DNA of 64,000 nucleotides. Source: Escherichia coli. GTDB taxonomy: Bacteria > Pseudomonadota > Gammaproteobacteria > Enterobacterales > Enterobacteriaceae. The notes beneath the pieces are model-generated. The model ran no database searches, was not told the DNA's origin, and saw only the letters and a program-made list of their open reading frames with translations. Position numbers and translations under genes: made by a program. Shown here piece by piece: positions 55,705-59,755 of the stretch; within the stretch, counting starts at the first letter, position 1, and each line of letters opens with the position of its first letter. Where the stretch lies: assembly GCF_013315695.1 (NCBI RefSeq), contig NZ_CP054353.1; one strand, written 5' to 3'.

Positions 55705-55890
55705 ATGCTGATTCTGACTCGTCGAGTTGGTGAGACCCTCATGATTGGGGATGAGGTCACCGTGACAGTTTTAGGGGTAAAGGGCAACCAGGTACGTATT
55801 GGCGTAAATGCCCCGAAGGAAGTTTCTGTTCACCGTGAAGAGATCTACCAGCGTATCCAGGCTGAAAAATCCCAGCAGTCCAGTTACTAA
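55705..55890 (+). CDS. csrA: carbon storage regulator CsrA
   Basis: 61 aa: [48 protein letters not shown]. Confidence 0.95.
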
Positions 55891-56205
55891 TCTTTCCGCG
55901 TCTCATCTTTATCGGTGAGACGCACCCTCAAAATTTCTCCTTCACTCTATAGTCTTTTCGCTTTACTCCCGTTCATTCAACTTAAGTCTCCATTTTTTTG
56001 CATTACTGCTATCTGTCAGACCTCCGTTTTTCTGTTGATAAAACACTCTTTTTGACGTTTTTACAGACTAATTGAGCGTGAAGTGTGCAAACGATAAAAG
56101 TGTGGGAAAAATTGTTTGACTTATAAGTCTCAGAAAGTAATATGTGCGCCACGCAGCGACGATGAGCGATAAACAAGCTCTTCGAAGCACTCGTAAGAGG
56201 CGTGT

Positions 56206-56298
56206 GGTGAGGTGGCCGAGAGGCTGAAGGCGCTCCCCTGCTAAGGGAGTATGCGGTCAAAAGCTGCATCCGGGGTTCGAATCCCCGCCTCACCGCCA
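56206..56298 (+). tRNA. serV: tRNA-Ser (GCU)
   Basis: 93-nt sequence with long variable arm, anticodon loop cuGCUaa, 3' CCA encoded. Confidence 0.9.
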
Positions 56299-56301
56299 TT
56301 T

Positions 56302-56378
56302 GCATCCGTAGCTCAGCTGGATAGAGTACTCGGCTACGAACCGAGCGGTCGGAGGTTCGAATCCTCCCGGATGCACCA
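56302..56378 (+). tRNA. argV: tRNA-Arg (ACG), copy 1
   Basis: 77 nt gcatccgtagctcagctggatagagtactcggctACGaaccgag...gatgcacca; symbol assignment among the four copies is by K-12 order only. Confidence 0.9.
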
Positions 56379-56440
56379 TCTCTTACTTGATATGGCTTTA
56401 GTAGCGGTATCAATATCAGCAGTAAAATAAATTTCCCGAT

Positions 56441-56517
56441 GCATCCGTAGCTCAGCTGGATAGAGTACTCGGCTACGAACCGAGCGGTCGGAGGTTCGAA
56501 TCCTCCCGGATGCACCA
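56441..56517 (+). tRNA. argY: tRNA-Arg (ACG), copy 2
   Basis: Identical 77-nt tRNA; 139-bp repeat period. Confidence 0.9.
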
Positions 56518-56579
56518 TCTCTTACTTGATATGGCTTTAGTAGCGGTATCAATATCAGCAGTAAAATAAATTTCCCGAT

Positions 56580-56656
56580 GCATCCGTAGCTCAGCTGGAT
56601 AGAGTACTCGGCTACGAACCGAGCGGTCGGAGGTTCGAATCCTCCCGGATGCACCA
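56580..56656 (+). tRNA. argZ: tRNA-Arg (ACG), copy 3
   Basis: Identical 77-nt tRNA; identical 62-bp spacer. Confidence 0.9.
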
Positions 56657-56718
56657 TCTCTTACTTGATATGGCTTTAGTAGCGGTATCAATATCAGCAG
56701 TAAAATAAATTTCCCGAT

Positions 56719-56795
56719 GCATCCGTAGCTCAGCTGGATAGAGTACTCGGCTACGAACCGAGCGGTCGGAGGTTCGAATCCTCCCGGATGCACCA
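56719..56795 (+). tRNA. argQ: tRNA-Arg (ACG), copy 4
   Basis: Identical 77-nt tRNA. Confidence 0.9.
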
Positions 56796-56888
56796 TATTC
56801 TCCGAAATCTTCAGCAATGAAGGTATCGAAGAGGTAGCGATATTAACCGCACGCCAGCAGCGGCCCGAAGGGCGAACGCCAGTGAGTC

Positions 56889-56910
56889 ATCCTCCCGGAT
56901 GCACCATATT
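56889..56910 (+). repeat. 22-nt direct repeat of the tRNA-Arg 3' end (orphan acceptor-arm fragment)
   Basis: atcctcccggatgcaccatatt duplicates 56778..56799 of copy 4, 89 bp downstream. Confidence 0.7.
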
Positions 56911-57053
56911 ATCCAAAAAATTTCCTTCAAAAATATCTCATTTCTAAATAACTACTTTATCCATTTCCTGAATTTTCTTCTCCTTCGCCATCAGCGACAA
57001 AATCAAGCAATTACGCTAAAGTAGCGTCATATTTTTCGACTTGCGAGAAGACC

Positions 57054-57620
57054 ATGTACGAGCGTTATGCAGGTTTAATTTTTGATATGGATGGCACCAT
57101 CCTGGATACCGAGCCTACGCACCGTAAAGCGTGGCGCGAAGTATTAGGGCACTACGGTCTTCAGTACGATGTTCAGGCGATGATTGCGCTTAATGGCTCG
57201 CCCACCTGGCGTATTGCTCAGGCAATTATTGAGCTGAATCAGGCCGATCTCGACCCGCATGCGTTAGCGCGTGAAAAAACAGAAGCAGTAAGAAGTATGC
57301 TGCTGGATAGTGTCGAGCCGCTTCCTCTTGTTGAAGTGGTGAAAAGTTGGCATGGTCGTCGCCCAATGGCTGTAGGAACGGGGAGTGAAAGCGCCATCGC
57401 TGAGGCATTGCTGGCGCACCTGGGATTACGCCGTTATTTTGACGCCGTCGTCGCTGCCGATCACGTCAAACACCATAAACCCGCGCCAGACACATTTTTG
57501 TTGTGCGCGCAGCGTATGGGCGTGCAACCGACACAGTGTGTGGTCTTTGAAGATGCCGATTTCGGTATTCAGGCGGCCCGTGCAGCAGGCATGGACGCTG
57601 TGGATGTTCGCTTGCTGTGA
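57054..57620 (+). CDS. yqaB: HAD-family sugar phosphatase (fructose-1-phosphatase)
   Basis: 188 aa; HAD motif I FDMDGTILDT. Confidence 0.9.
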   Translation: MYERYAGLIFDMDGTILDTEPTHRKAWREVLGHYGLQYDVQAMIALNGSPTWRIAQAIIELNQADLDPHALAREKTEAVRSMLLDSVEPLPLVEVVKSWHGRRPMAVGTGSESAIAEALLAHLGLRRYFDAVVAADHVKHHKPAPDTFLLCAQRMGVQPTQCVVFEDADFGIQAARAAGMDAVDVRLL

Positions 57621-59682: not shown

Positions 59683-59755
59683 AAAAAGGCCACTCGTGAG
59701 TGGCCAAAATTTCATCTCTGAATTCAGGGATGATGATAACAAATGCGCGTCTTTC
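59683..59755 (-). ncRNA. micA: MicA (SraD) Hfq-dependent sRNA
   Basis: Minus strand reads gaaagacgcgcatttgttatcatcatccctgaattcagagatgaaattttggccactcacgagtggccttttt, the MicA sequence as I recall it, between gshA and luxS. Confidence 0.85.

Follow-up and report, generated by a model that had tools for sequence, protein, structure and literature searches.

A probable case of recent spacer homogenisation in the tRNA-Arg(ACG) array of the Escherichia coli serV-argVYZQ operon

The locus and its transcription unit

The 64,000-nt stretch of Escherichia coli DNA analysed here (the window) carries a run of tRNA-Arg(ACG) genes which are all alike and which are separated by spacers that are also all alike, and the question raised by this locus is what has made them so. 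The preliminary description had reported four identical genes in a 139-bp tandem with identical 62-bp spacers, and had taken the identity of both genes and spacers as a sign of gene conversion or recent amplification. The array itself was confirmed exactly in its coordinates, period and anticodon by ARAGORN, Tandem Repeats Finder and string extraction. ARAGORN, Rfam and string extraction placed the four genes on the + strand at 56302-56378 (copy 1, in the argV position, with its CCA encoded), 56441-56517 (copy 2), 56580-56656 (copy 3) and 56719-56795 (copy 4, in the argQ position). Each of them scored 67.1 bits with the Rfam tRNA model (RF00005; gathering score 29), was assigned the anticodon acg by ARAGORN and ended in ACCA. 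Tandem Repeats Finder returned 56301-56796 with a period of 139, 3.6 copies, 100% matches, 0 indels and a score of 992, and in the extracted strings the four genes, of 77 nt each, were identical, as were the three spacers of 62 nt (77 + 62 = 139). Perfect identity across approximately 500 bp cannot be explained by chance.

The unique sequence flanking the array was matched in 5425 of 5426 complete E. coli genomes, the best match being 99.9% identical. From the open reading frames and Rfam, the order around the array was recA-recX-alaS-csrA, then serV and the four arg genes, and then yqaB-yqaA-gshA-MicA-luxS. The csrA (55705-55890) and yqaB (57054-57620) reading frames bracket the array, and the same annotation was found in all 14 RefSeq records inspected. 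In MG1655 the same csrA-yqaB interval is annotated as serV-argV-argY-argZ-argQ (b2695-b2691, 2,817,784-2,818,645), with the same flanking genes. As in K-12, a tRNA-Ser(GCU) gene is followed after 3 nt by tRNA-Arg(ACG), there are four Arg copies, and their 77-nt sequence is identical to that of argV, argY, argZ and argQ; the K-12 argY-argZ spacer is, moreover, identical to spacer 2 of the window. This identifies the locus as the serV-argVYZQ tRNA operon of E. coli, orthologous to that of MG1655 and reversed in orientation with respect to it. The K-12 spacers are 198, 62 and 198 nt long, as against 62, 62 and 62 in the window, K-12 having RtT-like inserts after argV, argZ and argQ; this departure is allelic variation within the species and does not count against orthology. 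The operon, and copy-number change in tandem tRNA genes, are already known, and the locus is biologically ordinary. The explanation that we favour, with a probability of roughly 0.87, is that the array belongs to the serV-argVYZQ operon, expressed as a single transcript, that it changes through recombination within the array, and that its spacers have recently been homogenised.

Two features of the operon had been overlooked in the preliminary description. The first operon gene, tRNA-Ser(GCU), lies at 56206-56298 on the + strand (ARAGORN; Rfam tRNA, 56.8 bits; serV in the K-12 annotation), the array being the distal part of the operon, and 93 nt past the last gene the 3' end of the tRNA recurs as a fifth, partial copy. 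The only non-tRNA Rfam family reaching its gathering threshold in the 64-kb window was the small RNA MicA (59684-59755, - strand, 83.9 bits), in the position expected of it in E. coli, between gshA and luxS.

A consensus scan of the + strand found one promoter-like site upstream of the array (TTGACT, 16-nt spacer, TAATAT; 56116-56143), followed by the G+C-rich stretch GTGCGCCACGC; the array itself contained none. If transcription began some 7 nt past the -10 hexamer (~56150), serV would be preceded by a leader of 56 nt. Cloned serV precursors carry leaders of 52-56 nt, with a maximum of 56 nt (PMC7049720), in agreement with the predicted position of the promoter. A single promoter upstream of serV would give a polycistronic transcript of tRNA-Ser(GCU) and the four tRNA-Arg(ACG). 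After the array, the same scan found a weak terminator-like hairpin with a T-run at 57013-57037 (+ strand), roughly 17 nt ahead of the start codon of yqaB (57054), and no other terminator-like site; this hairpin is a candidate for the operon terminator or for a part of the yqaB 5' UTR.

The 62-nt spacer is not junk, as it contains a structurally conserved hairpin, found at 56387-56413 in spacer 1 and again at +139 and +278. Across 18 spacer variants from several genera, 90.2% of the cells at its paired positions could pair, compared with 28-56% when the partners were slid; seven of its 10 pairs had changed on both sides, and none of 500 shuffles reached the observed covariation score. A conserved A/U-rich leader, GCAGTAAA..TTTCCCGAT, lies 3' of the hairpin. 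Judging from other polycistronic tRNA transcripts, the hairpin and this single-stranded leader most likely guide the endonucleolytic separation of the tRNAs by RNase E and/or RNase P, and would keep 3' trimming in check.

On the opposite strand, three overlapping reading frames extend over 56009-56817 (56009-56518, 169 aa; 56334-56657, 107 aa; and 56473-56817, 114 aa). The preliminary description had dismissed them as artefacts of the array, and we agree: they read through antisense tRNA, none of the three matched a Pfam family, and none carried a CDS annotation in the 14 RefSeq records inspected. As 139 leaves a remainder when divided by 3, they meet each unit of the array in a different frame. 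Arrays of this type are easily mis-assembled and yield spurious reading frames, and deserve masking in annotation pipelines.

Modules, length classes and gene dosage

The arrays could be described with three kinds of module: T, the invariant 77-nt tRNA; S, a spacer of 59-64 nt with many variants; and L, an insert of about 135 nt. K-12 reads T-L-S-T-S-T-L-S-T-L, which gives its 198/62/198-nt spacers, and the window reads T-S1-T-S1-T-S1-T-L', where L' is a remnant of L. Complete genomes were found with two (AVS0973), three (APEC E18055), four and five (Z0117EC0117 and Nissle 1917) tRNA-Arg genes, and four-copy arrays carried from 0 to 4 L inserts.

We took a census of array length using the unique flanks alone as the query, with 59 genomes sampled down the ranking and about 20 loci inspected, so that the figures are counts of genomes and not phylogenetically controlled counts of events. 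The csrA-yqaB inserts fell into eight length classes, which the module maps explain. The K-12 type, 914-916 bp, was the most frequent (23 of 59), followed by 1049-1052 bp (10 of 59), 646-648 bp and 779-785 bp (8 of 59 each), 685-687 bp (4 of 59), 748-749 bp (3 of 59), 506-512 bp (2 of 59) and 623 bp (1 of 59). Most of this polymorphism is due to the presence or absence of L, and a minority to a change in the number of tRNA genes. The preliminary description had regarded the array as a potential site of copy-number change and had proposed a comparison across strains; that comparison bears it out, with two to five genes, at least eight csrA-yqaB length classes, and three-copy derivatives within the window's own sub-lineage.

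Tandem tRNA arrays vary by unequal crossing-over, the duplicated E. coli tyrT/tyrV genes being an example. The present array does not differ from them in principle, as it has the same perfect direct repeats within one operon and the same strain differences in steps of one unit. The mechanism that we propose starts from the 77-bp perfect repeats, which would let sister chromosomes misalign and undergo homologous recombination or gene conversion; through such exchanges 139-bp units and the optional RtT-like inserts of about 135 nt would be gained or lost.

The tRNA-Arg(ACG) of the array is tRNA-Arg2; TadA deaminates its A34 to inosine, and the codons that it reads are CGU, CGC and CGA. Four genes would provide a high dosage of this major arginine tRNA. 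Duplication of the operon was reported to give 2.4-fold more tRNA-Arg2, whereas with argV alone left tRNA-Arg2 was 16-fold lower, TadA editing was altered and there was an LB-specific growth defect; tRNA-Arg2 gene dosage affects both the editing of mRNAs by TadA and growth in rich medium (PMC13170351). Because dosage has such measurable consequences, the natural variation from two to five copies could contribute to phenotypic differences between strains.

Origin of the uniform spacers

The identity of the genes and the identity of the spacers turned out to be different matters. The 77-nt tRNA-Arg never varied: each copy was a perfect match (0 mismatches), not only in E. coli but also in loci of the Salmonella-like and Klebsiella-like types, as well as in Enterobacter, Citrobacter, Pluralibacter and Brenneria. 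As this identity spans genera, conversion is not needed to explain the identical tRNAs, and purifying selection would be enough. That part of the preliminary description which read the identical genes as a sign of conversion or recent amplification is therefore not supported.

The spacers behave otherwise. In the window all three are of the S1 type, and lie on the + strand at 56379-56440 (spacer 1, 62 nt), 56518-56579 (spacer 2) and 56657-56718 (spacer 3). The position of spacer 1 is occupied in nearly all other E. coli by the S2 variant: of the 15 other E. coli arrays that were looked at, 14 began with a distinct 64-nt spacer and the remaining one was a two-copy array, and this 64-nt variant, with AAAATCTGCAGTAAAGTAAG, was still recognisable in the Salmonella-like and L016 loci. 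The three spacers of K-12 are all unlike one another, as are its three L copies, and within-array spacer identity in other genera and species is usually only 40-90%. The spacers thus behave as position-specific orthologues, with no continuous homogenisation.

We considered whether, on the contrary, continuous concerted evolution keeps the whole array uniform, spacers included, as a general property of the locus. The tRNA copies are indeed always identical, and identical spacer pairs do occur here and there, as in the middle spacers of Nissle and Z0117EC0117 and in a five-copy tRNA-Arg(ACG) array of Citrobacter sp. FP75 with two identical 194-bp (L+S) spacers. Yet the identity of the tRNAs reaches across genera and calls for no conversion, position-specific spacer variants persist throughout E. 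coli and can be followed to the Salmonella-like and L016 loci, and both K-12, where all spacers and L copies differ, and the 40-90% identity in other genera are hard to reconcile with steady homogenisation, which we consider an unlikely account. The identical spacers of Citrobacter sp. FP75 (locus L039) look like an independent recent duplication of a unit in another genus.

The closest relative of the window by its flanks, AF3, has the same deleted L' and the spacers S2-S1-S5, compared with S1-S1-S1 in the window. Over 3621 bp the two differ at nine positions, seven of them in spacer 1, one in spacer 3 (G in the S5 variant of AF3, A in the window, at 56681) and one in the serV leader. Eight of the nine differences thus lie in spacers 1 and 3, each of which has been turned into the sequence of spacer 2, and since both are now copies of spacer 2, at least two events are required. 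This pattern is the mark that very recent events within the array, gene conversion or unequal exchange, leave behind, and spacer 2 is the likely donor for spacers 1 and 3. As far as these alignments can tell, the identical spacers are a recent derived state and a rare allelic state of a known operon; for the spacers, the reading of the preliminary description as recent conversion or amplification was upheld. The proposed course of events is that the internal RtT-like inserts came to be absent and the terminal one to carry a 22-nt deletion in the sub-lineage of the window, and that the window afterwards underwent two or more very recent events of its own, which would have given spacers 1 and 3 the spacer-2 sequence and left a perfectly uniform array of 4 x 139 bp.

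To count uniform arrays we relied on a 711-nt query covering the whole array, because a 265-nt junction query for genomes with S1 in the first position returned an inflated 454 at >=99%, BLAST having joined pieces from different units. The exact 711-bp architecture was present in two of 5425 complete E. coli genomes, 1517k and WW2. Among the best 60 matches to this query, about 44 were AF3-like and seven were three-copy arrays exactly one 139-bp unit shorter.

These two genomes bear on the suspicion that the uniformity arose in assembly, with a 556-bp repeat collapsed or homogenised by a short-read assembler in a strain which in truth is AF3-like or has another copy number. The array does exceed the typical length of a short read, and the differences between the window and AF3 are confined to the repeats, as errors in calling a repeat consensus would have it. 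Against this, the identical 4 x 139 arrangement occurs in two independent complete genomes, 1517k from Paraguay and WW2 from China, unique sequence flanks the array, and the seven differences in spacer 1, which include a 2-nt indel, could hardly arise as a polishing error. We hold an artefact to be very improbable.

1517k and the window differ at 22 positions in 4.4 kb, none of which lies within 56179-56804; the array is identical, and the flanks of 1517k differ from those of the window at 20 sites in about 3.8 kb. Since the same array stands in divergent flanks, array and flanks must have different histories in at least one strain, and this pattern would fit a single origin followed by transfer as well as independent homogenisation. 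It could also be taken to mean that allelic replacement by homologous recombination brought the complete uniform array into the window from a donor resembling 1517k and WW2. However, directly after the last tRNA (56805 and 56808) and in both flanks the window agrees with AF3 and not with 1517k, so that both end-points of an imported tract would have to fall inside 56179-56804, in or at the edge of the repeats. Such an import is no simpler than two conversions within the array, and we think it rather improbable; homogenisation within the array remains our preferred reading. At 56178, in the serV leader, the window has C where both AF3 and 1517k have T.

The RtT-like element of the array

A repeat search and alignment to intact copies identified the sequence after the last tRNA gene (L', 56796-56906, + strand) as the remnant of an RtT-like, tRNA-linked element. 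It begins at 56796, directly after the CCA of copy 4, and its last part, 56889-56906 (ATCCTCCCGGATGCACCA), duplicates the last 18 nt of tRNA-Arg; both a start after the CCA and a duplicated tail are traits of RtT. In L' a 22-nt deletion with its junction at 56851/56852 has taken away GGCACCAGGGAGGATAACGTTG (alignment columns 59-81), and with it the 5' strands of two helices, the tail stem (P3) and P4, the first core hairpin. L' therefore lacks the first core hairpin and the tail stem of RtT, and a search of the window with the RtT model (RF00391) gave no match even at E<=10. The window strain is without an intact copy of L.

The duplicated 3' end at 56889-56906 might also be viewed as the attR scar of an integrase-mediated element which once resided in the last tRNA-Arg gene, a duplication of the 3' 18 nt of a tRNA being the classic mark of integration into tRNA genes. 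But just 93 nt separate the copies, and these 93 nt are homologous to a structured element that follows internal tRNA-Arg genes in K-12 and is found in many genera; the core of this element is common to RtT repeats at Tyr, Pro and Lys tRNAs, each with its own tail, and the list of reading frames contains no integrase or prophage gene nearby. An attachment-site scar is thus extremely improbable and was rejected, the intervening DNA being an RtT-like element which also occupies internal positions in many genera.

An intact L begins immediately behind the CCA of the tRNA (TATTCTCCG...), and its 3' end repeats the final 18 nt of that tRNA. The three L copies of K-12 scored 31.0, 29.2 and 22.8 bits with the RtT model and aligned over its full positions 1-130, the gathering score of RF00391 being 45 bits. 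Folded singly, intact L sequences gave z values of -4.0 to -6.6 relative to shuffled sequence. The duplicated tail pairs with an upstream strand (GCACC-A-GGGAGGAU with AUCCUCCCGG-A-UGC), so that three hairpins are enclosed and the ACCA end is left free. The structure was specified from the single-sequence folds and was then tested by pair counts with controls: in 36 distinct Arg-linked copies from many genera its six helices were paired in 85.5% of cases, as against 32-46% in slid controls, and 18 pairs had changed on both sides, a covariation score which none of 500 shuffles reached. One compensatory change in L tracks a change in the tail of the tRNA itself. With an alignment of 37 L sequences, RNAalifold did not recover the tail stem and returned only P4 and an alternative pairing.

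A matrix of duplex energies between upstream arms and the tails of the tRNA types was uninformative, because the tails share a CCU-rich T-stem and the upstream window of short elements included the tRNA. A refolding test, which worked only for the Arg and Lys types, was cleaner: Arg elements paired 8.8 tail nucleotides with their own tail versus 2.6 with the Lys tail, and Lys elements paired 8.5 with their own versus 7.5.

A species-level scan for the core found at least 120 stretches across Enterobacterales and some Oceanospirillales. We analysed 115 core matches in 80 loci; among the matches listed, 25 were linked to tRNA-Arg(ACG), 22 to Lys(UUU), 18 to Tyr(GUA) and 23 to Pro, and each linked element carried the tail of its own tRNA. 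Arg-linked L has its core, CGTTGC-loop-GCAACGNCCCGAAGGGCGA...GAGTAATCC, in common with RtT RNA, the 178-bp repeats of the tyrT operon (RF00391; rttR in K-12). Like L, RtT RNA begins after the tRNA CCA, ends with the 3' end of its own tRNA and ACCA, and pairs this end with an upstream strand. Arg(ACG)-linked elements scored 23-41.5 bits, those other than the K-12 copies 29-41.5, all below the gathering score of 45, and the elements at the other tRNAs scored 55-137 bits with the exception of one Pro-linked copy at 44.5 (Tyr, 124-137; Pro, 44.5-101; Lys, 55-61). Judged by these scores and the shared core, L is a divergent, sub-threshold subgroup of the known RtT family. The length polymorphism of the array is thus mostly that of an RtT-like element whose Arg-linked subgroup is missed by Rfam at threshold, and the natural alleles with gain or loss of L provide material for the study of this family.

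Repeats of this sort, linked to tRNA genes, were reportedly described by K. Rudd (1999), and Boesl and Kersten are said to have proposed in 1991 a link between rtT RNA and the stringent response, which is mentioned second-hand in bioRxiv 10.1101/2024.07.17.603846; a search of the open-access literature on rttR/RF00391 tRNA-linked repeats found nothing relevant. It is conceivable, though we regard it as doubtful, that Arg-linked L is a functional structured RNA and not an inert spacer. In such a model the 3' 78 nt of L would fold into a four-way junction shaped in outline like a tRNA, in which a 13-bp stem, by way of the 3' strand of the tRNA, would mimic the stacked acceptor and T arms, with three short hairpins and a free ACCA end. 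If this were true, L cut out by the tRNA-processing enzymes could act in cis on the maturation or termination of the tRNA-Arg2 transcript, or in trans by mimicking uncharged tRNA, a role reportedly once proposed for rtT RNA in the stringent response; the natural dose would then range from 0 to 4 intact copies per E. coli array, with the window strain as a natural null.

A few further observations were made on the distribution and forms of the element. Outside Enterobacterales, RtT-like cores were noticed in loci L040 and L065 (Marinobacterium), L057-L059 and L101 (Alloalcanivorax/Alcanivorax) and L078-L079 (Amphritea); in Marinobacterium lutimaris and in Amphritea L078 the core adjoins tRNA-Arg(CCG), with no exact tail match by the criterion used. 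The few core matches in Streptomyces, Clostridia, Paeniglutamicibacter and Comamonas are probably due to chance. In loci L006 (O157:H7 FRIK2069) and L019 (SW4848), spacer 3 is 101-102 nt long and consists of a 40-nt stub (TATTCTCCGTAATCATCAGTGATGATGGTTAAGATGGATTTTCTTA) joined to an ordinary short spacer; the stub resembles an L reduced to its 5' hairpin domain by loss of the 3' domain, and so represents another deletion derivative. Lastly, in loci L012, L014 and L015, whose CsrA is identical to that of the window, two RtT-like elements stand in direct tandem (L-L) in the operon trailer past the last tRNA-Arg gene, which implies that the element itself duplicates in tandem, like the RtT repeats after tyrV.
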